From the NCBI GenBank assembly GCA_964019425.1, contig OZ025805.1:372001-436000 (forward strand): DNA of 64,000 bases. Direction: 5' to 3'. Position 1 is the first letter of the stretch, and every line of letters begins with the position of its first letter. This document shows, piece after piece, positions 1,808-52,047 of the stretch. The notes below the pieces were generated by a model. The model had not been told where the DNA came from and did not search any database. It worked only from the letters and a program-made list of their open reading frames with translations. The translations under genes and the position numbers were made by a program. Source of the DNA: Flectonema sp. DT1601 (Eukaryota).

Positions 1808-2369
1808 ATGCAAGTTTTTGTGACGTGTCCTGATTGGGGACTCCCCGCAGTGACAGTGACGGCTGGTGCTGATTCAGTTGTGAACGACGTGTTGACAGAG
1901 GCTGCTGAGGAATGGGATGTGGATCCGGAGGAAGTTGAACTCTCGTTTGCTGGTGATACCCTTTGCGAAATTGATCGGCTGGCAGATCATGGAGTGGTTG
2001 CAAACAGCGAGTTGGAAATGTGGAAGAAGCAGTTTAGGATATTCGGTAAAAGCTGGTTTGTTGATGATGCAAAACGGGAGCAGCTGCTTCTTTGGATGAG
2101 AGATCACATTGCGGAGTATTTATGTCTGGACACTGCCACATTCGCAGAAGATGGTTGCCTAACTGTTGACGGTGACCTTCTTCCTTCAGATGCCGAACAG
2201 GTAGCTTTCCGCAATTCAAATTCCAACAGCACAGCCATGTCATCAGTTACCACTATCGGAGATGAGTTCTTGTCTTCCTGTTCACAAATTACTTCTCTTG
2301 ACCTTTCAAGTCTTAGTAGTGTCACCACTATAGGAAACTTATTCTTGTCTTCCTGTTCACAAATCACTT

Positions 2370-2437
2370 GGGATCACGACACCTGCCTCCTCGCGGCGGT
2401 CCCGGACGACTTCGATAGGGGTCGACAAAACAGTGTC
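2370..2437 (+). ncRNA. HDV-like self-cleaving ribozyme at the LINE 5' end
   Basis: P1 GGGATC/GGTCCC; P2 GACAC(C)T/AGTGTC; P3 GCC/GGC with loop TCCTCGC; P1.1 CC/GG; P4 CGACTTC/GGGGTCG; J4/2 with C2426 followed by As. P1 is 6 bp and P2 is bulged, so the fold is slightly non-canonical. Confidence 0.72.
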
Positions 2438-5341
2438 AAACACAAGAGATGCCAACAACATCAAAACCATCAAAACCAGCTACAACATCCAGAGCATACA
2501 AACCCTGGCTTGTCAAATAAAGAACGGAATAAACTAGCCCATGCCTTGAATGGCAATGGTGGACCAGGAAAGGACAGCAGAGACCGACGCCCGCGAGACG
2601 ATACTCGCGACAGGGACGAAAACCGTCCAAACAAGGAGGAACGTCGCATAGCGAAGCTCGAGAAAGAGAAACTCGACTCGCTAGACGAGATAGAGGAAGA
2701 GAAGCAACGACTGGGGCAGCAGAGAATGGCCATGGAACAGCACCACCACCAGAAGGAAACCAACCTTCAAGGACAAGAAAAACAGTTGGAACAGCAACGC
2801 CAACACCAACAACAAGAACTGCAAAGTCAGTACCACCAACAACAGCAGCAACTGCAAAGCCATCATCAGCTGAAGGAAACGGAAAGTCTCCAGAAGGAGC
2901 AAAACCTACAGGCTCAACTCAAGGAGCGACACCAGCACCAACAGAAGGAATTGGAGAAGCAATACCGCCAACAACAACAGCAACTGGAAAGCCAACAGCA
3001 GAAGAAGGACGCCGAGTCTGAACAGCAAACACATCTGACTCGGTCACAACTACAGAAGGAAAAGGAATCCTTCCAGACAGAGAAGGAACGGCTCCACCTC
3101 CAGCTGGATCAGCAGTTGAAGAACGAGAAGGAGCACCTCCACCAACAACTCCAACAGAAGGAAGACGAGGTTCGTAAAGAAAAGTTAGCAGAGAGAATAG
3201 AACTCCAACAACTGCGAGATGAACTAACTCAACAAGAACAGAACATCCAACGACGTGAGGAAGAGGTGAACCGAGGACAGCACCAACTACACCAACAACA
3301 ACAACAACTAGAGCAGCAGCAACAGCAATCGCAACATCAGCAACTGGAACTACAACAACAACGGCAACAACAGCAACAGCAACAACAGCATCAACAACTG
3401 GAACTGGAACAACAACAACTACAACAGCAACAGCAACTGCAACAACATCGACAACCGCAACAACAACCGCAACAGCAACCCGTACACTACATGCAACATC
3501 AACCGTATGCAACGTACGACACCTACGCCCAGCAGCAGCAGTCTTCCCACTACGAAGGGCTACAACAGGAACTGAAGCGGGAAAGAGAGGAGAAGAGCGA
3601 ACTACGCGAGATGCTCCGAACTCTCCAACAACAACTGGACGGATTGAGAGAAGAACTCAAGGCCCAACATGCTGAGGCGAAGAGGCAGCAGGAAACGGCG
3701 GGACGAGAAGCGAGAGAGATGCAAGAACGTTTCTTGCTAGAACTCGAAGCGGAACGGGTCCAGATCAGAGGGCTCAACTCACTGAGAGAAGAGGAAGAGG
3801 AACTTCAGATGGACACCACCCCTGATCAGGAAGCAAACACGGAAGTGAAGCAAACGCCACCAGTGAAGCTGCCCCAAGACGGTATGAGGGAGCTGGACGC
3901 CTCACGCAAGAAGCTGATGAAAGAAATCAATGAAGGGCAGGTAGCCGGACGATCGGCCATCCAAGAGCAGATGGTCCGAGAGGCCGGGAGACTGGCGCAG
4001 ACTCAGAAGAGCTGGGAGAACGCAGCACGCAAGGAGCGATCCAGGGTGGATAACCTCTCGCTGGCACCGGAATACTGGCCAGAGGGAATGGCGATCACGA
4101 AGGAGCAGTACGACGCCGGTGCAAAGGGAGTACACCTCACCACCAGAGAGGAGGCAAGGAAGAGGATGTCGGGAACACCTCCGGGAGCCTGGGAAACGTT
4201 ATCCCTGGTAACCCTGGAACCACCATCAGACACGGCGCAGAAAGTACAGGTAGTACTAAAGGAGACGACGAGCGACGGCGAGAAGAGAATTCTCAAGCAG
4301 CTCTGGATGACAACACTGGGAAGAGTGGTTGTACCATCCGGAACAGACGTCGTGCGGACGGAAAGCACGAGGGAGATGGTTGTCCGGGTGGACAAAAAAT
4401 GGTCCGGAGAGAAGAGATGGTCGGAAGTGAAGCGCTCCCCGTTCAGGGCAACGGAGGAATTGAAGAAGATGCCGGGGTATGTCGATACGTACAACCCGCG
4501 GATCGGAGACCAGAGCGTGACCGTGATGCTCAGGGTGAAGGTAGCCGAAGTGAAGAACTTCCTCCGAGAATCGGGGAAGGACGGCGTCTTCACCAAGGAA
4601 AAGGATCCGAGAGAGGAACGAGCAGTGAAGGCGGCGGTCATTTGGCTACCGAAGGACGAGACGCTCGGAATCGCTCGGGACAAGGCTGTAGAAGTCGATG
4701 GAGGGCTGGGACTCGTGGTAAACGAACACGGACTCGGGCTTCGAGTGACCAGCTGGCAGGAAACGGCGGCGAGGGAGAAACTGCACCTGCCGGCTAAGCT
4801 ACCGGAAACAAAGATCACGGGTATCCCGATCGGCACAACCACCGACGAAGCGATCAAGTGGCTGATCACGAAGGAAGGCTGGGAAGTGAGGAAGACGAAG
4901 GAAGGCGTACGGAACGGCATGCGATGGATGGTCGTCCGCGGTCCGGTGAGAACGCAGGAAACCATCACAGTGGATGGCGTCCTGTGCATGGTGGAGGCTG
5001 GGAAACAGAAGGAGGAAGTCGACCCGAAACGGAAGGAGACCAAACGCCCGAATGCGACACCGACGAAACCAGAGAAAAGGCGTGACCCGACGGAGGGAAC
5101 GGGAGGAAAGTGGTACACTCGATTGGAGTTCATCGAGTTTCATGGGAAGAAGAAGGGACAACGCCTATGGTTAGAAGCCAGCAACCCAACACCAACTACG
5201 ACGGCACCTACGAAGACAGCGACCGCAACGACAACAGCGAGAAAGGAGCCCAAGTCGACAAAAAAGAAGGAGAACAGCTCAGTGGACGAGAGATTGGACC
5301 GACTGGAACGTCTACTGATGGCGTTCATGGAACGGAATTGA
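2370..5341 (+). CDS. LINE ORF1: Q/E-rich coiled coil plus globular C-terminal region; true start uncertain
   Basis: Open from the element 5' end (in frame with host ATG 1808) to TGA 5339-5341; first in-frame ATG is only at about 2725. Confidence 0.85.
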
Positions 5342-8300
5342 CCGGCGGAGGACGGAAGGAACTGGGCGGAGACACGGAGACGTCTCCTGCTACAAGCTGG
5401 CGACGTTGAGAGGAACCCCGGACCGAGACCACGAATCGATGGGCTCACCGTGGGAACAATCAATGTCACCACACTAGAAGGAAAAATAGATGCCATCACA
5501 GATCTGAACCTAGATCTGATAGCTCTACAGGAAACTTCTCTGACGGGCCCACAGCAACGCCAGATGAAAAAACAGCTCGGTGAGAGAGGATGGGAGGCGA
5601 CGTTCGGGTTAGAGTGCAAATTACTAACCGATGGGCAAAAGACGTGGACGGCGGCGGGAGGCGTGGCCATCTTGACGCGCACTGGTACACCGGTGAGAAG
5701 GATAAAACACGATCGGCTCGACAACACAGGACGATTCGTACACGCGGGAGTGTCGTACGGAAATGGCAAGGTACTGCACGTTTTCTCGTTCTACGGAGAC
5801 GTACGTTCGGCGGTCTACACGGAAGAGTTGATTGCGGAGATGCTCGTGGAAGCAGCAGCTCTGGGTGATGTTCCCGTATTTATAGCGGGGGACTTCAACG
5901 TCGAAACAACGGAATCGCCGGCGCTTCTGTCGGCTTTCGCACACGGACTCTGGATAGATGCCGCCGTCTCGATGGGAAACATGACACCGACAAGCGAAGC
6001 GGGAAAAGGACTTCGTAGAATCGATGCTATTCTGATGAACCGCGGGGCGGCGACAGCAATCTCGAATGACACAACGATCCATGTGCATAAGAGTGAGCTG
6101 ATCCCGACACACAAGCCGGTCATCATTAGAAAGCTCAACATCTCACGCTACAACGAGAAGGCTCCTAGGCTGATAGTACCGAAACAGTTGGATACCTCCG
6201 AGACAACGGACCCGCGTGAGGGGAAGGCCGAAAGGCAACTCCACTGGACGCGAGCTGTAGCGACGGAAGATCCTGACAAGATGCTGGAGGCGCTTGGAGA
6301 GATCATCGAAAGATACCTTCTGACGGGAAAGCTGGAGATAAGTAACCCAGCCAAGTACAAGGGACGCGGGAAGAAGCGTGAGCCTGTGATGTGGACGAAC
6401 GCGGCGAAACAAGACGGGAGAGGAGCGACGTGCAGGGAAACGCGGAGAAGACTGCAGAAGATACGTGTTCTGGAGGAAGTGATGAAAATCACAAAGCAAC
6501 GCGATGGTCCGACGGTGCCGTCCCACGAAGTAATGAAACTCTGGAAAAAATTACGAAAACTCGATCCGACGACGGGATCCGAAATACCACAGACGGAGGA
6601 GCTTCGGATACTACTACAACAAGCGAGACAGGAGCAAGCGATAGAAAGCAAGAAGCTCCGAACTGAACGCATCCGCATGTGGAAACGGAATGTTGTCGAC
6701 AATTGGAATGACGACCGCACGAAGGTTTTCCAGTGGATCAGGAACGTCGAGCAATCGAAGACTGTTCTGATGGAAAAGGCAGATGGAAGCTGGACGGCCA
6801 ACTGCTCCGAGATGGATGAGGCCATGCACGCGGCATGGGACCCCATACTCAAAAAGTACTTGTCAGACCCGGAACCAGACTGGATGAAGTTCGAAGAACG
6901 GTACAGCAACTACATCGAGGAACACCCGATGCGATGCGAAGATATCACCGGGGAGGACGTTGCAAAAGCCCTCAGAAGGACTAGCTCGCGCAAAGCAGCT
7001 GGGGTAGACGGCTTCAGGATATCGGAGCTCAAGTTGCTACCGGAGGACATGATCCAGATGATAGCGGAATTCTACAACATAGTGGAGAGAACACACTGGC
7101 CGGAAGCACTTCTCACGGCACTGGTGTCGGCCATACCCAAAGGGGCAGGGACGAAACCACTGGAGCAGAGACCCATTACGGTGACATCCGCACTTTACAG
7201 GCTATGGGGCTGTATACGTATGGAAAAGGATGTAATGGAGTGGCAAGAAAAGTGGGCTCACGACGGGCAGTACGGCTACCGGAAGGGGAGATCTACGCTC
7301 GACCTCAGCTGGAAGATAGCACTAGACGTGGAACACGCAACTCTCTACGGAGAAGAGATTGCTGGAGTGACCACGGACTTCAGGAAGTGTTTTGACCTGA
7401 TCCCGCACGACATCCTCCTGAAATTAGTGAAGGAATTGGGCCTCGGTAATAAGATCCTGAGAACTGTGACGGATGTCTACCGGCGACTCAGAAGGAGATT
7501 CAAGTTCCCGAGCGGCGTCGGAGAAGAATTTGCCACCACCAACGGAATACTGCAAGGATGCCCGCTCAGCGTGGTGCTCTTCAATGCGCTGAGCTCGATA
7601 CTCAGCAAAGCAATCGAGAGGGAAGCCGATGTGACGCCCGGATCGTATGCGGACGACCTGACATTGTTTGGATCACGAACGAAGCTACAAGAAGGCGTGG
7701 AAGTCGTTGCGGAGTTCTGCACCCTGACCGGACAAGAACTCGCGCCTCAGAAATGCAAGTGGTTCTCGAACAGAGACCAGAGCCAGACCAACATCACAAT
7801 GGGGGACACAACACTGGACTTCGATGACAGTGTCGATATCGTGGGATGCCACCTCAGTATGAAAGGAACCACCAAGCAGATGGGGAGGATCACAGAAGAA
7901 GTGCTCGATAGAGCGAGGCGAATCCGGTTACTTCCGCTCAGATATCAAGCGAAGGAACAGATAGCTGCAGCTAGTGTCATGCCCAAGGCGCTCTTCGGAA
8001 CGGCACTGTACGATCCCGATGCGACGCGACTCGGACTGCTGAGAAGAGCAATGGCAACGGGGATTTTCCGCAAACTTGGAGGGAAAAGAACTAAGATGTC
8101 GCACACCATGGGCCTAACGCTACTCTGCAAGGGACATTGTGTGGATCCCGCGACGTACATTAGGTACAACAGACTCCTTGCACTCACCAGAATGCTACCG
8201 AAGCTAACTGAGAGGATACGCAGGGTATGGGAACACCTGCAAGAGCACACTGAAGCGACGAGAGGACCAGTCGGCCTCGCCCTGAGTACTCTGAAGGAAC

Positions 8301-10078
8301 TTGGATGGGAATGGTCAACTTTCTCGGTCTTCGAAGGTCCGGGAGGGACGACCGAACACGGACGGCTGGATGCGGGGCGCTGGCGGCACGATGTCAGAGA
8401 GGCGTGCAGGCGTTTCACCTGGAACAAAACAATTGCGGAAACGAGACGGGTAAACCTGAGAGGTATTGAAGCGGGCATCGACCGGAAAGAGACCCTGAAG
8501 GTCCTGAAGGAAGGAAAGGGCGACCCCTACCTGCGCGGAGTAGTGAAGCACTGCCTCCTGGACAACGTGTACACTGGTTCGATGAAGGCGGGAAACAAGA
8601 ACTGCGCGCACTGCGAGGAGGTTGACGACGTAGAGAGGACGGAGACCCTCGAGCACGTGAACTGGGATTGCAGAGCTTATGACACGATCCGACAGGAATA
8701 CCCGCAAGTGATGCTACAAGTTCGAAGCGATTGGCCCAATTGCCTGAGGCTACTCGGCATCAAGCCCGACAATGTGGAACTGCCGGCGGGGCTCACCGGA
8801 GACCTACAACGAATGTTCGCACGGATCAGGCTCCGCAGGGACGAGTACCAACAACTGGAGGAGAGACGGCTGACGGTTGTGGAATACGCTGGGAACAAAG
8901 AACCGGAAGTAGTTATGCGATACAACAACAAACTGGAAAAGTACATGCCAGTATACACCCAATGGCCCGAAGCCCTTGGATTGACCTTGTACTTAGCGCT
9001 TGCGAGCTACCTGAGGGAACTGAAGTGGCCTCGACAGCCAGACGGGGTCGGAGTCACCTTCCTGGAATTAGCGATCGACTTCGAAGCGTATGCGGGGGTT
9101 GACATACCGACCACAGTCCACGAAGGCCACGTAGCGAAGTGCACCAAAGACAGAGCCGCCGGGAAGAAAGCTGACGTCATGTGTGGACTGATGCTAAGAT
9201 TGAACTTGGTTCACAAGCATTTAGAAGGCGAGGAACAAAGAACCTTTCCCGACTACTGCGTAGGAAGCAACAAAGCCTTACGTCCACTAGGAGCCCCGGT
9301 ACTGAAAGGTTTGAAGAAACGACCAGCTTTTCTGATGGGAGACGAAACAGTAGACACAATTCGGAGGACGGTCCAAGAGGCGAACGACGGAAAAGCTGAC
9401 AAAATCAGATTCGGCTTCGAGACTGAGTGCAGGCACTCGAGCGAGAGGGAAGGGAGAGCGGAGAAATGGATAACCGCGGCACGACTTTTCCCATCAAAGG
9501 AAAAAGACGTACAGCTGAGGAGGGAGCTCTGCGAGCGAGGACCGACACGCCCGCCACCCGAGGTCGTCAAGAGACCGGGCATCGCGGAGGGACAAGGAAC
9601 GATGAACTCGACGTGCTACGGACACTTCAAGAAGAAATGCAATAGTTGTCGACGGGCCGGAAACACCATCTACCAGTGCTGCCACAACCATCACACTCTG
9701 GGGGATGAAGATGGACAAATACCGATATGGGACTTTTGCAGCAAGCACAAGCTTACTCCATGTGCAGTCTGCATAGTGATCGGCAGAGGATCTGAGCAAT
9801 GTTGCAGAAACAGCCACCACCGATGCCGTCACCACGAGATGGCTCCCTGCAACGACTGCAAGCGGAATCCGGATCCGGAACAACGGACTGCCACGAAATG
9901 CTGCAACAAAAAGCATCACGGGCCAATTATAAGGACGTTGACGAGGAGGGCGAAGCAGCCGACGAAGCATGATATGCAAACCAGCACATCGCTTCTAAAA
10001 TTAGGTTTCACCAAACAAATGAAACCAAAAGCAGAGGAAACCCCTGAAAGGGAACCCCAGGACAAGGGGTTAACTTAG
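5342..10078 (+). CDS. LINE ORF2: 2A peptide, APE endonuclease, reverse transcriptase, CCHC zinc finger, C-terminal Cys/His repeats
   Basis: APE motifs TINV, IALQET, GGVAIL, AGDFN, RIDAIL, PTHKP; RT motifs QRPIT, DFRKCFD, GILQGCPLS, YADD (7646-7657); CAHC...ETLEHVNWDC; frame is open from the base after the ORF1 stop. Confidence 0.95.
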   Translation, partial: PAEDGRNWAETRRRLLLQAGDVERNPGPRPRIDGLTVGTINVTTLEGKIDAITDLNLDLIALQETSLTGPQQRQMKKQLGERGWEATFGLECKLLTDGQKTWTAAGGVAILTRTGTPVRRIKHDRLDNTGRFVHAGVSYGNGKVLHVFSFYGDVRSAVYTEELIAEMLVEAAALGDVPVFIAGDFNVETTESPALLSAFAHGLWIDAAVSMGNMTPTSEAGKGLRRIDAILMNRGAATAISNDTTIHVHKSELIPTHKPVIIRKLNISRYNEKAPRLIVPKQLDTSETTDPREGKAERQLHWTRAVATEDPDKMLEALGEIIERYLLTGKLEISNPAKYKGRGKKREPVMWTNAAKQDGRGATCRETRRRLQKIRVLEEVMKITKQRDGPTVPSHEVMKLWKKLRKLDPTTGSEIPQTEELRILLQQARQEQAIESKKLRTERIRMWKRNVVDNWNDDRTKVFQWIRNVEQSKTVLMEKADGSWTANCSEMDEAMHAAWDPILKKYLSDPEPDWMKFEERYSNYIEEHPMRCEDITGEDVAKALRRTSSRKAAGVDGFRISELKLLPEDMIQMIAEFYNIVERTHWPEALLTALVSAIPKGAGTKPLEQRPITVTSALYRLWGCIRMEKDVMEWQEKWAHDGQYGYRKGRSTLDLSWKIALDVEHATLYGEEIAGVTTDFRKCFDLIPHDILLKLVKELGLGNKILRTVTDVYRRLRRRFKFPSGVGEEFATTNGILQGCPLSVVLFNALSSILSKAIEREADVTPGSYADDLTLFGSRTKLQEGVEVVAEFCTLTGQELAPQKCKWFSNRDQSQTNITMGDTTLDFDDSVDIVGCHLSMKGTTKQMGRITEEVLDRARRIRLLPLRYQAKEQIAAASVMPKALFGTALYDPDATRLGLLRRAMATGIFRKLGGKRTKMSHTMGLTLLCKGHCVDPATYIRYNRLLALTRMLPKLTERIRRVWEHLQEHTEATRGPVGLALSTLKELGWEWSTFSVFEGPGGTTEHGRLDAGRWRHDVREACRRFTWNKTIAETRRVNLRGIEAGIDRKETLKVLKEGKGDPYLRGVVKHCLLDNVYTGSMKAGNKNCAHCEEVDDVERTETLEHVNWDCRAYDTIRQEYPQVMLQVRSDWPNCLRLLGIKPDNVELPAGLTGDLQRMFARIRLRRDEYQQLEERRLTVVEYAGNKEPEVVMRYNNKLEKYMPVYTQWPEALGLTLYLALASYLRELKWPRQPDGVGVTFLELAIDFEAYAGVDIPTTVHEGHVAKCTKDRAAGKKADVMCGLMLRLNLVHKHLEGEEQRTFPDYCVGSNKALRPLGAPVLKGLKKRPAFLMGDETVDTIRRTVQEANDGKADKIRFGFETECRHSSEREGRAEKWITAARLFPSKEKDVQLRRELCERGPTRPPPEVVKRPGIAEGQGTMNSTCYGHFKKKCNSCRRAGNTIYQCCHNHHTLGDEDGQIPIWDFCSKHKLTPCAVCIVIGRGSEQCCRNSHHRCRHHEMAPCNDCKRNPDPEQRTATKCCNKKHHGPIIRTLTRRAKQPTKHDMQTSTSLLKLGFTKQMKPKAEETPEREPQDKGLT
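5381..5425 (+). other. 2A/StopGo ribosome-skipping peptide RLLLQAGDVERNPGP
   Basis: Exact D(V/I)ExNPGP match with the typical upstream LLLxxG, in the ORF1/ORF2 frame. Confidence 0.92.
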
Positions 10079-12181
10079 GTTGGCCGAACCAGTGCCTCGT
10101 CATCTCACCGTGCTAGCAAGCCTGAATGACAGCACTCAAAATGGTACATATATTCCTGTTCACAAATCACTTCTGTAAACCTTTCAGGTCTTAGTAGTGT
10201 CACCATAGTAGGAGGTGGATTCCTGTTTTCCTGTTCACGAGTCGTTTCTCTTGATCTTTCTTGTCTTAGTAGTGTCACCACTATAGGAAACTTATTCTTG
10301 TCTTCCTGTTCACAAATCACTTCTGTAAACCTTTCAGGTCTTAGTAGTGTCACCATAGTAGGAGGTGGATTCCTGTTTTCCTGTTCACGAGTCGTTTCTC
10401 TTGATCTTTCTTGTCTTAGTAGTGTCACTACTATTGGTGATAATTTCTTGTCTTACTGTTCACAAATCACTTTTCTCGACCTTTCAGGTCTCAATAGTGT
10501 CACCTCTATTGGTGATGATTTCTTGTATTCTTGTAAACGGATAGCAACAGTTGACCTTTCAGGTCTTAGTAGTGTCACCACTATTGGGAATAATTTCTTG
10601 TTTTCCTGTGAACAAATCACTTCTCTTGACCTTTCAGGTCTTTGCTGTGTTACTTCTATTGGAGATAGTTTCCTTTCTTTCTGTACACAAATCACTTCTG
10701 TGAACCTTTCGGGTCTTGATAGTGTAACCGCTATAGCAAATGACTTCTTGCGTTGTTGTGTATGTATTATTTCTCTTGATCTTTCAAGTCTTATTAGTGT
10801 CACCACAATAGGAAGTAATTTCTTGCGTAGTTGTTCAGAAATCACTTCTCTTGACCTTTCAAGTCTTGGTAGTGTCACCACTATTGGTGATGACTTTCTC
10901 AGTGAATGCGACGCTCTTGAATCTGTGCAGCTGCCTGAAAGTAATAGCGTTCTCTTTGAGGAGTCTGTGAAAGCAGCGATTGATCACTCAGGTTAAAGTG
11001 GTGAGTTGATTCTTAAAGTTTTGTTATTTTTGTTATTTTTGTTTTATTAATTAGTTGACCTTCGTGTACATTCTGACTAAAATATGAAAACTTCTTATCA
11101 AAGATTACGGAATAAGAACAATCATCGATTTGAGAACTACTTTAAAAGGTATTCCGGTCACATAAAAGAAAGGAAAGAAGAGTAAGAAAAGAAAATAATA
11201 ATTAAGAATATTTAAGAAAATAATATTTAAAAAAAGTAAATAAGTAAAAAAAAATGCTCCACAAGGCCGTGACCGTGGTATACGTTTCTCCAAACTTTTG
11301 GTTGGAATTGTAAGTTTTCCCTTAATAAAAAGTTCATTGTGACGATAACAACCCCATTTTTATTCTCCTTTTTAAAACTTTCTTAATATTTTATTGCATG
11401 GCATTCACTCCAGATCGAAGTTAATATTATTTTTCTTAAAACAGCGACACGGATGTAAATTATTAGAGACAGAGGCTATCCGGAATTTTACATTTTTATT
11501 AAAAATGCTTTTTTTTAATCTAAACTTCCATCACAGGATAATTTTTCTCACAAGAACTCTTGCGATGCAGGTTTCTGTAGTGTTTCCCGACTCAGGATTT
11601 GGAGATGCAGTTTTGACATCAACATCAGAGTCTGTCGTACGTGATGTTATAGAAACAGTTAACTGAGGAATGGGATGTTGTCAGAATTTATTGAGATGAT
11701 CGTATTGCGGTGATGTTTTTTAGAAAGGAATGGTTTTACTGATTTGAATAAGATAAATAAACTGCTAACACCGAGTAATGACATTTATTTTGAACAATAA
11801 AATTAGATTCGACTTGTGAGACATTTACTGTTGAAGATGTATTGATTTGATATCGAGTTGGGTAATTGTTTCCTATCTAACCTTCATTTGGTAATCTGAT
11901 CAGAGTTTACATTTGGTTGGGAATATTTGAAAAAAATAAGCAGGGAAGTTCTCCATTGATATCGGAAATGAGTACCTAGGCATGGGTCACATCCTTGTAG
12001 TGTTCACTTTCATTCATTCAGGTCACTGAAACAGATGAATCCTTTAGTAAAACAGTATTCATACCCCTTTGAGGGAATGTAATTACATGTCGCATCCTCG
12101 TAGTACTCGATACCCAGATGTCACTTGTACGAGTTCTTTCTAACAGAACCTTTCCCACCTCACAGCAAATTATTTAAAAAA

Positions 12182-14055
12182 GGGTTATGGCCCAAAATAC
12201 CCCAAAGTGGCCCAAAATACCCCGAAGTGGCCCAAAATACCCCAAAGTGGCCCAAAATACCCCGAAGTGGCCCAAAATACCCCGAAGTGGCCCAAAATAC
12301 CCCAAAGTGGCCCAAAACCCGGTCTGGCTGTGCACCCTGGGGTCCCAACCACATAGCTGGGTATGAGGATGGGTCACAGTCACCAGGTATTACTCATACA
12401 ACCATCAGGGTTTAGAGCATCACAAGCACCAGACAGGTCACCTAAATTTACTCGAAAGTTTGGGCAATTCGAACGTCAGCATTCACATTAGCAAGCAACC
12501 AGTCCTGAGTACTTAAAGAACCCAACCATTACGTGTATCAGCCACAGTCACACTTAGTATAGCGTTAGTACAGAGGACACGGATCTGCTATGCAGGGAAG
12601 TGACTTGAACTCGTTCAACTAATTAATGTGTGCAGATATAAGCGCCGCGAATTGACGGGTCTGAAGTTATGCTTTCCGAAGAGAGTAACCACCCACGCGA
12701 GTGTTATTTTGACGCCATAACCTGTAGCTTTCAACACATAACAACCAGGGATAATTCTCAGTAAGGCCGCCGTCACCGTGAAGCTGCTACGAATATAACC
12801 CAACAAACTAGCAATTCCTCCAACTTTGTTCATATGTGCAGACACATAGTCAGCTACACACTTGGAGACTTTCTTAATCTCTTTAAGCTACTTTGCTTTA
12901 GCAGTGGATCTTGCTTATACTATTTTTTTGGCTGAGTTTCAGTGGCAGCAGGTTGAGTTTCAACTATGTTTCGGGCATCTTAGAGATTGAGAATAAAAGT
13001 TCGTAGTAAAAGAGTAAAAGCCTAGAGAGAATGAAAACATTTGTGATTAGGAACCTGAACACTTTACTGAACGAAGCATCGTAGGCAACCAGTTTCCTTC
13101 GAGAATCTGCAGGTGGTGCAGGGCTAAATCGAGATGAGGAAGATAACACCCGTACACCTTAAGCGCACACGGATGTTGAGATAACGTTTGTATGATGTTC
13201 ACTTGACGAGATTATCAAAGACAAATACTCACGGATAGGTTGGGTTGCTCTTCAGGTCCTGATAGTATTCTCAGCCTCTGGAAGTTTTACTGAGTGCATG
13301 CAAAGAACGGTATGTGTGCAGGGCTGGGTCACCTTACAGAGAACTGCTGTCCTCTTACACGTCATTCCAACCGAATTTCAAAGTCAAGACACCTGCGAGT
13401 TACAGACAGCCTGGTCGCAAGCGACACTCCTGTTTCTGACCGGGTTATCAGGGTATCTAACTCATGCAGGCATGAGAGCTTTTTTAAGGCTACTTTGAAT
13501 TATCAAGAGCGCAGTACTGCCCGAAGGGTTCCCGCGTGTCAAGATGCATTTGCATGTACTGAGCAGAAGTTCCAGAAAGAAGATTACTTTTATCATTTCC
13601 CAAGTCATCACATCCTTAACCGTTTGTGTTATTAGCTTTCAATCAATCCATTACCATAAATCCACAGATGAGTGTGCTGAATAGAAAGTAAAACGGGACG
13701 GCAAAAAGCTTTTGTCCAAGTGACACAGAAATACTGGCCAGGCAGGTTCCAAAAAGAAGTTTCAAGAAAAAAAAACAAGAAAAAAAAAAAAAAAATTGGC
13801 AGTGGAAAAAGTTACAACTTGTAGTGAACAGCGAAAAAAAAAACATCACTTCCAGTTTCTGTACACACATTATCCTGATTTACAAGTTCCCAAAGCCGGG
13901 TTCGGTATATTTTGGACCACTTCGGGGTATTTTGGGCCACTTTGGGGTATTTTGGGCCACTTTGGGGTATTTTGGGCCACTTCGGGGTATTTTGGGCCAC
14001 TTTGGGGTATTTTGGGCCATTTGCAAAAAAAGTGGGGTATTTTGGGCCATTGCCC
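12182..14055. mobile_element. Non-autonomous foldback/Mutator-like DNA transposon with minisatellite TIRs
   Basis: Ends GGGTTATGGCCC... and ...GGGCCATTGCCC; arms of 20-bp tandem units GGCCCAAAATACCCC(A/G)AAGT (about 12189-12318 and 13905-14048, inverted); 9-bp TSD TTTAAAAAA at 12173-12181 and 14056-14064; empty site visible near 1795-1803. Confidence 0.88.
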
Positions 14056-14944: not shown

Positions 14945-15059
14945 TGGCCTTCCGACGCCACCTGGACCGCAACTCGTTCACAGTGCCCTACCCGGTTCTC
15001 CACCGGACCGTCTGAGCGACGGGATCCATGGGATTCAAACCCCTAAACACTGGTTAATC
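14945..15059 (+). mobile_element. 3' fragment of the ~690-bp ribozyme-headed short retroelement
   Basis: TGGCCTTCCGACGCC...CACTGGTTAAT matches the last ~115 bp of the full copies and abuts an LRR at the usual register. Confidence 0.9.
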
Positions 15060-15154: not shown

Positions 15155-15227
15155 GGGTAACGAAACTCGGACAGCGCGCCTCCTCGTGGTGTTGCCTGGA
15201 TGCACCTTGTGTGTAACTAGAGTGCTG
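15155..15227 (+). ncRNA. HDV-like ribozyme heading the short retroelement (also 51349-51421, 52362-52434, 53149-53221, 54025-54097)
   Basis: P1 GGGTAAC/GTTGCCT with G1-U wobble; P2 CAGCGC/GTGCTG; P3 GCC/GGT with loop TCCTCGT; P1.1 CC/GG; P4 TGCAC/GTGTA; J4/2 ACTAGA. Confidence 0.9.
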
Positions 15228-15834
15228 ACGTATTGTTGTTGTTGCTGTGTATTCTTTTACCCCCGTTTTATTTTCCGGTAGCCTAACCTTTAAAAAAAAA
15301 GGACAACATAGCAGAAGGTCAGGTGATCCGGCCCGGGATACTCAGGCACCCAGAGCTCACAGGGGCCACCGGGTTTTTATTTTTTCCTTAGTGGCATGAT
15401 TTCCCTTTACCCCCATTTCCTTCAAACTTCCCCCGTTTAGTCTTTTCACGCATGGGGGGATTATAAGTTCAGGTCGCCTGAAATGTATTAACAGTATCAG
15501 CCCCGCGAGTTACTCGGGAAGCTCCCATGCAATGTGTGGAGAAAGAGGCCATCCCTCCCCCTACCTCTCTGCTTTACTACGTCGTTTTTTGTGTGTGGCA
15601 TTTCTTTTCTTTTCAATCCTGTTCTTTCACACGCGGTTGTTCGAGCGGTTGTGAACCACCTTGGGTCTCTTACGGTCTCCAAGCTACTGTTGTGCGAAGA
15701 AACAAATCTGTTGGTGCGGTGGCCTTCCGACGCCACCTGGACCGAAACTCGTTCACAGTGCCCTACCCGGTTCTCCACCGGACCGCCTGAGCGACGGGAT
15801 CCATGGGATTCAAACCCCTAAACACTGGTTAATT
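15155..15834 (+). mobile_element. Non-autonomous short retroelement (SINE/SIDER-like), copy A
   Basis: 20-bp TSD TTGCTGTAAACAAATCACTA at 15135-15154 and 15835-15854; near-identical to four copies at 51-55 kb. Confidence 0.95.
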
Positions 15835-41442: not shown

Positions 41443-41830
41443 TATCGGTTTTTTATATTATAATTAAGTTAGATATTTTTCTCCTAACCTCCTCTTCTTC
41501 CTCCTTCCTCATATTTCTTTTTTTTTAGATTTCGTTAGACTAATTGTGATATCATTCTGTCTTGTTCTATATTTATATTATTATTGTTATTGTTTGCGAC
41601 AGGAATCATCATCAAATTATGGGTGTTTTTCGGTTATTTATTTTTTTATTTTTTTTGTTTTTTTGCAAAAACAAAGTTTTTTAGGCAACCCAAATTATGA
41701 AAACTACAACAAAAATACCCCCCAAAAATAGGGATTGCGATCCAAAGAAACAGTTCTTAAGCACTTTAGAACAAGTCTTTGAAAAATCTCAAAAAGTGTG
41801 AACCAGTAACTGAGGGGGGGGGGGGGGTAG

Positions 41831-43799
41831 GGGGGGTACAAGCTGTCGATAAAGTACTTTTTCCGAATTTTGGTAAATATAACCTTCCCGGGGGCAAAAA
41901 TTACCCAGGACCCCATCAGAACCCCCAAAAATGTGATTTCGGGGCCGAAAAAACCTCGATTTGGCTGATTTCGGCAAGGGAATGAAATATCTCAAAAAGT
42001 GTGGACCGTGTGGTACCTGGGGGTCCAATTTTGAGGACTGTGAAATGCACCTTCAAATAATTTTTTTTTACAATGAGAAGAGGTGAGTCTTGGTGTGCCC
42101 CTGTATGCGCAGTTTGCTAATATACCATTTCCGTATCAGTTTCCACCTCAAGAACACGCCACGAAAAAGAACAGCGCTCTCGCTCGGCCATGCTTGAGGC
42201 CACGAGGCTCACGGGCAGGATAACGCAGCGGAAAACAACGTTCTGCAGGGCAGCTCACAAAGTCATTCTGCGGAGGAGAGCATTGATCCCAGAGTGCATG
42301 AAAACACCTCCCGAGGCATCTCTGAAGTTACTCAACAACACTTGGACAGTCAGAAGTAAGATACGCGTGAGAAAGGGGTCAAGAAACGTCCAGTATCTGA
42401 ATCGTGATCACAGAAGGCTCACAGAGTGGAGAAAGCGCCACGTCAGTACCCTAAACAGGGATAATCCTGAAGACAGCTGTAGTGGTAGTGCGTCAAATAG
42501 CAGTGCCATAGATAAGCAGCAGCGACATAGGGCAACATGCCCTATCCAAAAAGCCATTCAAGGCATCACTTAAGACCCAACCATACTCACCAGCGGGGCA
42601 TACAAGACACTCTAGTATATGCAGCATAAGGAGAAGTACGAAAGACACACCCGCTTGCAACTGTACCCAAACGAGGGGGATATACTCCTGGAGTCTTGGA
42701 GTCGTAACAACACTGCAGATATTGCGGCAAGAAGGGATCGGCGCAGAGACATCCAACTAAGTCCTGAGTGAGTGACATAGTTGAAGCTGTCGCAGGTGCG
42801 CAGATGGAAGAGAAGCGGGTCGAAGTCACTAATTATATCTTGAAGGACAGTCCGACTTGTTGATGGATTCACAGGTGATCTGTCGGTGACCTGACTTCTT
42901 GAAGCAGCAGCTTCCTCCTCACCCTCCGTCACATCGCTGCAGCATGATACTTCCTCTAGCGCCCGTCGTGCTCGTGGGATGAAGCTAACAACCGTGGCGT
43001 TCGTTGTCATCCTGCACCCCTCAAGGGATGGGGAGGTTATTCAGTGTTGTTGATAGTTCTTGGTCAACTGATGGAACCAGTGGCGTGAATGCTACTCTAC
43101 TGATAACGTACAACATATTCCAGAGGTACACGGACTTCCAAAGGCTACCACATCAACGCAGGACCACCGACCCTCTTCAGATTGGCAAGAACAAGCACAA
43201 CAGGAGGCGCTACAGGGGCTGAACGTACCACCCCGTCCTCACAGGGAAGACCTCTAGACAGCAAGGTCTAATACTAATCTGCCATCTGTATCCAAGGATT
43301 GGTCCTCTGTCTATCTTGTACAGAAAGAAGCACAGCTTCGGGCCGAATTTCGAAAGCTGAGCACATGGGATGTTCAAGAGAAGGCCAGTAGCCTAAACAT
43401 CGGACATGGGGGAATTAACAAGCCGGTCTGGTGGAGCATATTATTAAGGTTCAAATCAGGACGATAAAAATAAAAATTGGGTTCCCATTTCATTCCCCAC
43501 TCAACTCAGAGGGAAACCCTGGTTATGGATTGCTCAATGCACGGAATTACTTGTAATTTTTGTGAGCCCTCCTAACACACCCTTGTTTTCACCCCCCTCA
43601 GGTACCACACGGTCCACACTTTTTGAGATTTTTCAAAGACTTGCTCTAAAGTGCCGAAGAACTGTTTCTTTGGATCGCAATCCCCATTTTTGGGGTATAT
43701 GTTGCAGTTTTCATAATTTGGGTGCCCAAAAAACTTGTTCTCCGGAAAAAAACCGAAAGTGCCCAAAATCTCCGTAAAATCGATGCTTGTACCCCCCCC
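41831..43799. mobile_element. Non-autonomous TIR DNA transposon with G-run termini; further end fragments at about 41620-41810 and 45692-45827
   Basis: GGGGGGTACAAGCTGTCGAT ... ATCGATGCTTGTACCCCCCCC, flanked by TAG on both sides; subterminal inverted block ATCTCAAAAAGTGTGGACCGTGTGGTACCTG. Confidence 0.75.
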
Positions 43800-43803
43800 T
43801 AGG

Positions 43804-45333
43804 ACGACTGTACTTCAAAAGAAGACACAAGTCATTGCAAATGATGAACTCACACAGGTCCCGCCGATAATTCCAACAATGATACCAACACCAATTACAA
43901 ATTTATCACAATCGACACCGTCAATTGTACTTCAAAAGAATACACAAGTCAGTGCGAGTGATGCACTTACACAGGCCCCGCCGATAATTCCAACGCTGAT
44001 GCCAGCAAGGATTTCAAAAATATCACAATTAGCACCGCCGACTGTAATTCAGAAGAAGACACAAGTTATTGCAAATGAGGCACCTACAATGGCCCCACCT
44101 GCAATCCCAACGTTGATGCCAGCAACGATCTCAAAGGTATCACAATTGGAACCTCCGACTGTACATCAAAGTGTGATTCAATCTATGAAAACGATACAAT
44201 TACCGATTGTATCACCATTGGATCTGGATCATAATGATGTGGATATGATCGATATGCCGTCACCAGCAACAGTACAACTGGATACGGACACTGACATGGT
44301 AATGGAAACTATGTCACCAGAGACGCAGGAATCACCGGAGCATAGATATGCTGGCTTAATGACTCCATCCAAAGACAGGATGGAGTCACCACCAATAACT
44401 CCGATTAAGATTAAGACTCCACTGAAAATAAAGACGCCTCTGAAGATCGAAACTCCGACTAAAATAATTCCACAAACCCAACAAGCATGTTGGGATGGAA
44501 AGAACCTCGAATTAATACGAAGTTTGTCAAAAGAAAGACAGTTGGAGAAAATAGTCACCACATACAGACTAAGATCAACTACACCACAAACAGTAGCCAG
44601 GAAGATGGAAACACCACCTACTGTAAGCAGTAAAGCCACGAATTCCGGAACAACAATACCGATTACACCACAAAAGGTATCAAGAGTACTAACATACACA
44701 GATACAGAGAATATCGGTAAAACTTGCAAATATTGCAATAAATCCTGGAAGTCATTTATTGACCATATCAATAAATGTGGAATATTCAGAGCATCAAAAT
44801 AATATCCAACATATGTTGATGAAGATGATAACACTTCATTTACGGTCACTGAATACAAAACGGATCCTCGAAATAGTATTGTAACTGTTACAAAAGATGA
44901 GACAGAAACTCATATGTTATCTATCAAAAAGAATGGCAAGTTGGCAACACAAACGGTCGCTGATGAACCAGAGAGAAGCAGTAACAAGAGACTGAACTCA
45001 CAGAGTCCAATGCGAATTGTGAGAATCAAAAAATACCTGAGCAACCGGAAAAGGCTTAAAAATGAGTGTACTGAACATAAGTTGGCACAGAAAATGAAAC
45101 TTAAAGAAGTACAAAAACAGAAATTAGCAAAGGGAAAGGAAAAGAAGAAACTGAAATTGGTAAAAAGACTCAACTCGCAGAGTCCAATGAGACCGATGCT
45201 CAGAAGAAATACTCGAAAGAAAAGAAGCAAACAAGATGAACATGATTCTTCAGATGATATGAGTATTTCACAGAGATCTTCAACTCCAGATATCCCTGAT
45301 GCTAAGGAACAATTATCAGACTTTGATAATTAA
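43804..45333 (+). pseudogene. 5'-truncated T/P-rich repeat protein with C2HC finger and basic tail; one internal TAA (44800-44802)
   Basis: ORFs 43735-44802 and 44914-45333 share a frame and are separated by one stop; about 39-aa repeats; CKYCNKSWKSFIDHINKC. Confidence 0.6.
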
Positions 45334-45493
45334 AAACACTTTCTACAATTATTGTAGAAAAGTGCTCCACTAGTAGTGAGCTAAGAACTAGTAACAGCAA
45401 AAAATATGTTTTTTTTATTTATGAACATGAAACGCAAAGTAACTACATTCCAGTCCTGCAAACTGGAATGACTCAGTCTCAACATTTGACTGA

Positions 45494-45560
45494 CTTACTT
45501 CTACACCATACTGATGAGAGAGAATAGAGGTAAGAGGTATATGGATTACTCTCGAAACCT
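45494..45560 (+). ncRNA. Candidate permuted hammerhead ribozyme
   Basis: CCATA-CTGATGA-GAGAG ... AGG-TA-TATGG ... CTCTC-GAAA-CCT, plus a 10-bp extra helix. Confidence 0.6.
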
Positions 45561-46397
45561 ATAGTTACTTTAATATGCTAAGTTGCGCATCACCCTTAGT
45601 CACTGTATTTTAAAACTAATGTTAAATTATCTTTATGTTTTTATGATACAACACAGTTGTAATTTTTACAAAATCGAACATACATCCCCCCTAGGGGGTA
45701 CAAGCATCGATTTTACGGAGATTTTGGGCACTTTCGGTTTTTTTACGGAGAACAAGTTTTTTGTGCACCTAAATTATGAGAACTGCAACATATACCCCAA
45801 AAATGGGGATTGCGATCCAAAGAAACATGTGGCTCAGATAGCTCATAATTCATCATAAGTTGTGACTTCATATAAAGAAAGTGTTGTACAAGTGTTTTCA
45901 TTAAGTATCAAAGTAGCACACGTAAACCTTCTTTAACTTTATCAGTTTCGGTTCACGGGGTTTCGTGACACAAACAAAACATCACAGTTGTTATATTATT
46001 ATTTTCTGTATAGTTCAAGATAAAGCCAATTCTCTTTTAGTAAATATAAACCCATTGTTGTTTGGTAGAGCGTAATTAACCTATTCCTTTATTAAAGATT
46101 TTTTACTGGTTGCGCCAAAACAAAACTAAAATGAAGTGCAATTTGCCGATTCCTTTTTACCCAGGTAGTACTTTTACAAAGAATGTAGAACCGAATTGGT
46201 TAAACATTTCATTACAGGAATCTAACAACATGTCGCATTCTTCGTAGTATTCGATACCCAGACATGATTCAATGTAGGGATCGTATTTATATAATTGTTG
46301 CCGCCTGGCGTTTGGAACACAACATCCACACATTCTTTACACAGCAGCCATATATTAACACCCCACAGCAAATAGTAATTCAAAAAACTAACAAACA

Positions 46398-51348: not shown

Positions 51349-52047
51349 GGGTAACGAAACTCGGATAGCGCGCCTCCTCGTGGTGTTACCTGGATGCACC
51401 TTGTGTGTAACTAGAGTGCTGACGTATTGTTGTTGTTGCTGTGTATTCTTTTACCCCCGTTTTATTTTCCGGTAGCCTAACCTTTAAAAAAAAAAAAGGA
51501 CAACATAGCAGAAGGTCAGGTGATCCGGCCCGGGATACTCAGGCACCCAGAGCTCACAGGGGCCACCGGGTTTTTATTTTTTCCTTAGTGGCATGATTTC
51601 CCTTTACCCCCATTTCCTTCAAACTTCCCCCGTTTAGTCTTTTCACGCATGGGGGGATTATAAGTTCAGGTCGCCTGAAATGTATTAACAGTATCAGCCC
51701 CGCGAGTTACTCGGGGAGCTCCCATGCAATGTGTGGAGAAAGAGGCCATCCCTCCCCCTACCTCTCTGCTTTACTACGTCGTTTTTTGTGTGTGGCATTT
51801 CTTTTCTTATATTCTTTTCTTTTCAATCTTGTTCCTTCACACGCAGTTGTTCGAGCGGTTGTGAACCACCTTGGGTCTCTTACGGTCTCCAAGCTACTGT
51901 TGTGCGAAGAAACAAATCTGTTGGTGCGGTGGCCTTCCGACGCCACCTGGACCGCAACTCGTTCACAGTGCCCTACCCGGTTCTCCACCGGACCGCCTGA
52001 GCGACGGGATCCATGGGATTCAAACCCCTAAACACTGGTTAATTTTT
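51349..52047 (+). mobile_element. Short retroelement, copy B
   Basis: TSD TTCCTGTTACCACATCACTG at 51329-51348 and 52048-52067. Confidence 0.95.

Follow-up and report, generated by a model that had tools for sequence, protein, structure and literature searches.

Two groups of retrotransposons are the closest described comparators for the element reported here. R2 elements insert site-specifically into 28S rDNA, are co-transcribed with their host, and are freed by an HDV-like ribozyme whose P1 helix is typically 6 or 7 bp and whose P2 helix carries mismatches in about a third of cases (PMC6765202, PMC3774820); they have one ORF, an endonuclease of a restriction-like type, and no host frame to join (PMC3894237, PMC6765202). 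The L1Tc/ingi elements of trypanosomatids, which are euglenozoans, are APE/RT LINEs with an HDV-like ribozyme (Pr77) at +1, a 2A-like peptide just ahead of the APE domain (PMC3894237, PMC3708506), short non-autonomous partners that also carry ribozymes, and a record of repeated insertion into one multigene family, RHS (PMC7563717). Cleavage by the L1Tc ribozyme is reported to leave an RNA that carries a 5'-OH and starts exactly where the element does (PMC3185411, PMC3383444). The idea that an IRES allows translation of the ribozyme-cut, uncapped R2 and L1Tc RNA has been put forward as a proposal (PMC6765202, PMC3383444).

The window analysed here, the whole 64-kb stretch of Flectonema sp. DT1601 DNA, contains a LINE of 7783 nt (2370-10152) between 20-nt target-site duplications (TSDs), inserted into a gene for BspA-type leucine-rich repeats (LRR). 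The LRR gene minus the element is a single 461-codon frame without an internal stop, and five paralogous LRR gene starts lie within the window. The open frame that starts at the host ATG at 1808 continues into the element for a total of 1177 aa. ORF1 has 990 codons up to its stop and is followed in the same phase by ORF2 with 1578 codons. The element has APE and non-LTR reverse transcriptase (RT) domains, the TSD, and multiple copies with different flanks, and it is thus an APE-type non-LTR retrotransposon. The features are as follows.

1808-2369, forward strand: 5' portion of the interrupted LRR gene, which starts at the ATG at 1808, has an LRR_5 match, and runs in frame into the element
2350-2369, forward strand: left TSD of 20 nt, whose last base is base 1 of a codon in the LRR repeat
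2370-2437, forward strand: HDV-like ribozyme fold, with predicted catalytic C2426 and a predicted cut at 2369/2370
2369-2725, forward strand: leader of ORF1, open over 119 codons without a Met and continuing the host reading frame
2528-2557, forward strand: N[KR]xxHxxNGN motif, a predicted processing site that matches the polyprotein cleavage motif of totivirus-like viruses
2726-5341, forward strand: remainder of ORF1, with the first in-frame ATG at 2726, a Q-rich coiled region, a conserved C-terminal domain, and the stop TGA at 5339-5341
5342-10078, forward strand: ORF2, with APE endonuclease, reverse transcriptase, and a Cys/His-rich C-terminus
5384-5425, forward strand: 2A-like peptide ending NPG/P, in the same frame, 14 codons past the ORF1 stop
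10079-10152, forward strand: 3' UTR, without a poly(A) tail
10153-10172, forward strand: right TSD, equal to 2350-2369
10173-10996, forward strand: 3' part of the host LRR gene, resuming beyond the right TSD
15155-15834, forward strand: copy 1 of 5 of a short non-coding element with its own HDV-like ribozyme and the same LRR target phase

With R2 the element shares the preference for a site, the predicted co-transcription with the host, and a ribozyme with a P1 in the usual R2 range; membership in the R2 clade was rejected, the target being an LRR gene and the endonuclease an APE rather than 28S rDNA and a restriction-like enzyme. It is like the L1Tc/ingi elements in its euglenozoan host, its APE/RT organization, the ribozyme at +1, the position of its 2A-like peptide, a putative short ribozyme-bearing partner, and its repeated insertion into one multigene family, but it differs in several respects. 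Its ORF1 is long, whereas PMC3708506 describes the L1Tc/ingi clade as lacking ORF1 and treats elements that combine ORF1 with 2A as exceptional. No RNase H was found by Pfam at E 0.1, whereas L1Tc has one, and its TSD of 20 nt compares with about 12 in L1Tc (PMC6765202). The host frame is kept here, in contrast to the ingi/L1Tc insertions into RHS genes, which are described as producing nonsense or frameshift changes (PMC7563717). Membership in the L1Tc/ingi clade was rejected on ORF1 and RNase H, the 2A-like peptide being present, and no protein named L1Tc or ingi is among the best 20 of 7993 scored RT matches, where the closest named relatives come from Flectonema neradi, at 61-63%, and from Diplonema papillatum, at 39-45%, so that a diplonemid is the likely host. 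A metagenome scan with the RT alignment gave 454 pattern matches, of which 0 were confirmed, and an exact 22-nt core occurred in metagenomes at four loci, 0 of them extending into the LINE. At one metagenome match (L003, 2001-2022, GC 0.49), the flanks resemble an unrelated HDV-like ribozyme.

The preliminary description had proposed a nested HDV-like pseudoknot starting from the first base after the TSD, and this was borne out, with the ribozyme beginning at the base that follows the 20-nt duplication and with all helices of the nested double pseudoknot (P1, P1.1, P2, P3, and P4) found, 17 of the 18 modelled pairs being standard in the window copy. P1 joins 2370-2375 to 2398-2403 in 6 bp, and P2 joins 2378-2383 to 2432-2437 in five pairs plus a C2383.A2432 mismatch, with U2384-A2430 topping the helix and C2431 bulged. 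P3 is formed by 2385-2387 and 2395-2397, L3 comprises 2388-2394, P1.1 is formed by 2389-2390 and 2404-2405, and P4 occupies 2407-2424 with 7 bp. C2426 is followed by AAA, and both the L3 nucleotides and the J4/2 segment (catalytic C, then N-A-R) agree with the HDV-like consensus. As had also been described earlier, the helices are unlike those of the short element's ribozyme in sequence, and the fold is common to both. An HDV descriptor of our own, drawn up after the sequence had been viewed, matched six places on both strands of the 64 kb, the LINE 5' end and the five short-element 5' ends, with a chance rate of 1 match in 1328 simulations of the window and 3 in 8802 simulations of the LINE. 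The descriptor singled out element 5' ends alone, and an Rfam scan up to E=1 gave eight weak unrelated matches and no match to an HDV-type model. The minimum free energy of nested folding was ordinary (z 0.10), which is expected because the fold is a pseudoknot. In our assignment 2370-2437 is an HDV-like ribozyme fold at the LINE 5' end with predicted self-cleavage, an activity that we infer from R2 and L1Tc; none of the papers listed in a literature search concerned HDV-like ribozymes in diplonemid-type elements.

The ribozymes of relatives were read back from proteins whose frame crosses the ribozyme, the DNA thus being deduced from protein, and their fit was scored on 28 constraints consisting of 18 pairs and 10 fixed bases. 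In the Flectonema protein P0055, 8 of the 23 ribozyme-coded residues differ from the window copy, and all 28 constraints can be accommodated. The paired changes Asp-to-Val at codon 4 and Val-to-Asp at codon 23 require U-A in place of A2379-U2436, and Cys-to-Arg at codon 6 with Asn-to-Arg at codon 21 changes both sides of U2384-A2430 to either C-G or A.G, C-G being the choice that pairs. Only 6 of 26110 random peptides with eight changes reach both the full fit and the double changes. In P0057/P0124, where 18 of the 23 residues differ, the fit is 28/28 with a free register, a score reached by 1 of 1414 shuffles with the register likewise free, and it is 25/28 in the fixed register of the window; the free-register fit has a G.U first pair and an unbulged 7-bp P2. 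Covariation is therefore seen, at the level of DNA derived from protein, as two forced double changes in P0055 and the complete fit of P0057, and the pairing whose absence from other LINE copies had been named in advance as refuting the ribozyme is conserved in them. The amino-acid changes within the ribozyme are radical and track RNA pairing, and the comparison indicates that the ribozyme fold is under selection.

One earlier suggestion was not upheld, namely that the 6-bp P1 and the bulged P2 would slow cleavage. The length of P1 was rejected as a sign of slow cleavage, given that 6 or 7 bp is typical of R2 ribozymes, and the P1 duplex energy of the LINE (-7.8 kcal/mol) compares with -7.2 to -7.4 kcal/mol for the short element with its 7-bp P1. 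The P2 duplex energy is -5.8 kcal/mol in the LINE, and -7.4 kcal/mol (three copies) or -5.8 kcal/mol (two copies) in the short element. In three sister copies, codons 21-22 encode DG; this places G at 2432 and repairs the P2 mismatch, and the unbulged P2 of P0057 speaks against the suggestion as well. Inclusion of the upstream flank in nested folding lowers the P1 probability from 0.98 to 0.29 in the LINE and from 0.28 to 0.01 in the short element; the effect is larger in the short element, so the LINE is not singled out by it. The 6-bp P1 and bulged P2 are thus, to judge from these copies, not a conserved brake. The same mismatch and bulge could instead mark a crippled ribozyme, in which case the LRR gene would be disrupted or domesticated and its main product a host-ORF1 chimeric protein. 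In favour of this are the A2432 of the window copy and of a contig from sequencing run X1, which breaks a P2 pair intact in the sisters, and the weaker P2 compared with three of the five short-element copies, but the remaining two short-element copies have the same -5.8 kcal/mol, and P2 mismatches are common in R2 ribozymes (PMC3774820). The A2432 variant furthermore occurs at two different targets and so has likely transposed, and ORF1 and ORF2 are both intact, which makes a crippled copy the least probable of the readings considered here, and a very improbable one.

The junctions of other copies bear on how the element sits in its hosts. Seven members of the window's own LINE family cluster were read, four of which are internal fragments, and the three with a 5' end (P0046, P0047, and P0052) are all in-frame fusions to different LRR paralogues or repeats in the same register. 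The X1 contig spans 2321-3277 without a gap, crossing the junction; its ribozyme is identical but its flank is not, and 13 letters differ; among the six differences listed, three are in the TSD flank and 0 in the ribozyme, and the contig is likely a second target site. Runs X2 and X3 gave short or unrelated pieces only. Flectonema P0055 and P0123 are isoforms of one Trinity gene and are LRR fusions at an equivalent register, and the third member of their cluster starts at the first Met; their junction-spanning fusion is a Trinity transcript assembly, for which pre-mRNA, DNA, or a chimera are possible sources. The P0057 cluster has 10 members, of which 7 are in-frame fusions, three to cathepsin-L-like genes (with Pfam matches to Peptidase_C1 and I29) and four to another family, the remainder being P0126, which starts at the first element Met, and two fragments. 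Several of these fusions may not be independent insertions but duplicates or isoforms, and called proteins, as a sample, favour open fusions. As an out-of-phase control, the +1-frame peptide was found in one protein among 18 candidates, which has the same junction and an earlier frameshift in the host gene; this control covers the +1 frame only, and the +2 frame stops after 15 codons. P0054, whose ORF1 is 57% identical, departs from the pattern: its start is called within the ribozyme, which it reads in the +2 frame. It is represented by one copy, which is internally deleted but retains the NGN motif. We conclude from these junctions that insertion takes place at a single codon phase within host multigene families, namely LRR genes for the window family and cathepsin-L-like genes plus another family for the relative. 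As side observations, P0057, P0127, and P0128 place the sister family in frame directly past GCNGGL of cathepsin-L-like genes, the N-termini of these hosts resemble signal peptides, and the ESM Atlas gave no usable match for the 35-residue leader of P0125, from the second host family of the P0057 cluster.

Intron-encoded homing endonucleases and maturases offer a partial parallel, being expressed as in-frame fusions to the upstream exon and then processed. In both cases a mobile-element protein is fused to a host N-terminus and later processed, a step that is predicted for the LINE, but self-splicing introns restore the host mRNA, whereas the LINE truncates the host gene and its ribozyme would cleave. 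For in-frame host fusion through the ribozyme of a retroelement, none was found in the titles and abstract starts of the literature searched, and a precedent is possible, for example of ingi fused to a host gene or of translation beginning within the ingi ribozyme; PMC4035085 adds nothing here on insertion frame.

The ribozyme bases are read without stops, as the preliminary description had it, and its peptide (WDHDT...NSV) is right, the first codon (2369-2371) taking one host base. This openness is ordinary in itself, as the 23 ribozyme codons are open in 61% of 5000 shuffles and two of the three frames are open across the ribozyme, and it was rejected as evidence taken alone. Of 10000 shuffles, 2051 leave the 53 codons ahead of the NGN motif open, or 21% per lineage, and the 96 codons from the ribozyme to the ATG at 2726 are open in just 2.2%. 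The first element Met is at codon 120 in the window, 93-119 in the sisters, 290 in Flectonema, and 102 in P0057, so the Met-less leader extends for 92-289 codons across elements, with a TTG at 2510 as a possible in-frame translation start in the window.

The strict form of N[KR]xxHxxNGN is found within this leader in 13 stored proteins from four ORF1 clusters or lineages, and a loose form in two distant ones. Across all six frames, the window contains it once, at 2528-2557; shuffling of leaders produces it in 25 of 300000 cases, and its His is at codon 55, 57, 58, or 68, always ahead of the first element Met. The motif recalls NKxMHxxNGN of Omono River virus (OmRV) and IMNV, after which the polyprotein is cleaved to give the capsid N-terminus, the capsid starting at the residue that follows the last Asn of the motif with an Asn/Pro N-terminus (PMC7968656). 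The N, K/R, H, and NGN positions are alike, all fixed positions of the viral motif being matched except Met, which is Ala or Val, and position 2 being K or R; also alike are the placement upstream of a structural protein within a longer frame and the co-occurrence of a 2A peptide. It is unlike the viral case in lying in a LINE ORF1, where processing is predicted. PMC5018817 adds nothing here on the cleavage mechanism, and a full-text literature search for the motif, which returned PMC7968656 and one unrelated paper, found no report of it in a retroelement.

These features can be set against an ordinary ribozyme-bearing LINE that starts at the ATG at 2726 or by reinitiation, with a 5' region that is untranslated and an open frame and host fusion that are coincidental, arising from low T content and the target sequence. 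Chance openness of the ribozyme, a T content of 10-17%, radical residue changes that follow RNA pairing, and the proteins P0126 and P0122, which begin at the first element Met, would all suit such an element, but it leaves the 2.2% openness beyond the ribozyme, the 289 Met-less codons in Flectonema, and a peptide motif that the leader retains between lineages whose ORF1s are 41-57% identical to coincidence, and we consider it improbable. Conversely, the leader is very probably translated in some way, and the idea raised earlier of an uncleaved host-element fusion mRNA gains support from the in-frame fusions in three lineages, the Flectonema transcript assembly, and a processing-type motif placed before the Met.

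The ORF1/ORF2 junction suggests a further departure from conventional initiation. ORF2 has no in-frame ATG ahead of the APE domain, four full-length ORF2 proteins are called only from a codon at the APE start, and the TGA at 5339 is kept in the X1 contig while five ORF1 proteins end at the same residue, on which grounds a private mutation was rejected. The conserved TGA and the missing ATG together imply readthrough or non-AUG reinitiation combined with the 2A-like peptide (the motif as defined in PMC3894237), and the order of a conserved ORF1 stop and an in-frame 2A-like peptide suggests stop readthrough followed by ribosome skipping. The junction differs in relatives, P0002 and P0003 having their own Met and an extra domain, and P0004 lacking 2A. 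By eye, the ORF2 N-termini of P0002 and P0003 contain an extra Cys/His protease-like region, and P0094 has an OTU match at 976-1067 in a single ORF1-ORF2 frame of 2834 aa; such extra protease-like or OTU regions are candidates for a protease that processes the polyprotein in relatives.

Our preferred reading is of a site-preferring LINE with a 5' HDV-like ribozyme in which a single host co-transcript serves as template when cut and as message when uncut, and the NGN motif frees ORF1p. It is built on the observed fold and its placement directly beyond the TSD, on the codon phase that the junctions share, on a frame that stays open from the host ATG through the ribozyme to ORF1, and on the Met-less leader with its conserved motif. 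The LINE would be transcribed together with the host gene, and, by analogy with R2 and L1Tc, cleavage at 2369/2370 would leave an RNA that has a 5'-OH and begins precisely at the element boundary, and this RNA would be reverse transcribed into a new target. Transcripts that escape cleavage would retain the host's spliced-leader cap and AUG, and a spliced leader is present on essentially all mRNAs of D. papillatum (PMC10161547). Ribosomes would then translate from the host N-terminus through the ribozyme into the leader, and processing after NGN (2557/2558), by a protease, by self-cleavage, or by ribosome skipping, would release ORF1p from its variable host piece. ORF2 would be made by readthrough of the TGA at 5339, or by non-AUG reinitiation, with a 2A skip, and the peptide encoded by the ribozyme is probably a disposable linker, its sequence being dictated by RNA structure. 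We judge this reading slightly better than evenly balanced. The broader proposal, of a diplonemid LINE lineage that has no start codon of its own and combines a fixed phase in expendable multigene families, translation from the host through the ribozyme, release at NGN, and cleavage as the switch between template and message, is offered more tentatively, at a little under an even chance.

The main competitor keeps the cut RNA as both template and message, with the ribozyme acting in an IRES-like manner, a non-AUG start in or just after it, NGN trimming the leader, and the host fusion a by-product of target preference. Such a start on the cut RNA has been proposed for R2 and L1Tc (PMC6765202, PMC3383444), and in P0054 the start is called within the ribozyme, in a different frame, with the motif retained. 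The in-frame TTG at 2510 and the 21% chance openness ahead of the motif also fit, and target preference at the DNA level, acting on codon-periodic repeats, could account for a fixed phase. This reading nevertheless leaves unexplained why the same phase recurs in three unrelated host families, and the changes in length between ribozyme and motif (His at 55, 57, 58, or 68) keep the frame except in P0054. A cut signal is moreover more useful where the N-terminus varies by host. Translation of the cut RNA is accordingly rated as rather unlikely, though well ahead of the untranslated 5' region.

If our preferred reading is correct, the LINE lineage offers a different and testable answer to the translation of ribozyme-bearing elements, in which the uncut fraction is the message. 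Target choice would then operate at the level of codon phase, HDV-like ribozymes would be extended to diplonemid-type elements, and a viral polyprotein cleavage motif would be placed in cellular mobile elements; if the NGN motif works alone, it would be a candidate second self-processing peptide beside 2A.

The short non-coding element provides a comparison within the window. Besides the copy at 15155, its copies start at 51349, 52362, 53149, and 54025, are 680-700 nt long, and have a canonical ribozyme and a T-ending 3' end, with a 20-nt TSD in four of the five copies. The host frame reaches a stop within the ribozyme in all five copies, despite the LRR phase being the same as that of the LINE, which shows that phase is fixed at insertion and that the open frame is kept by the coding element only. 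By eye, the 3' end of the short element is unlike that of the LINE, and a 5'-truncated piece of it lies at about 14945-15058. Elsewhere in the window, 12187-14022 is an element bounded by inverted arms of 20-nt tandem repeats, just upstream of an LRR gene start, and is DNA-transposon-like, and the segments 43663-45827, with 134-nt inverted repeats (97%), and 41653-43758, with 93-nt inverted repeats (91%), are likely DNA transposons.
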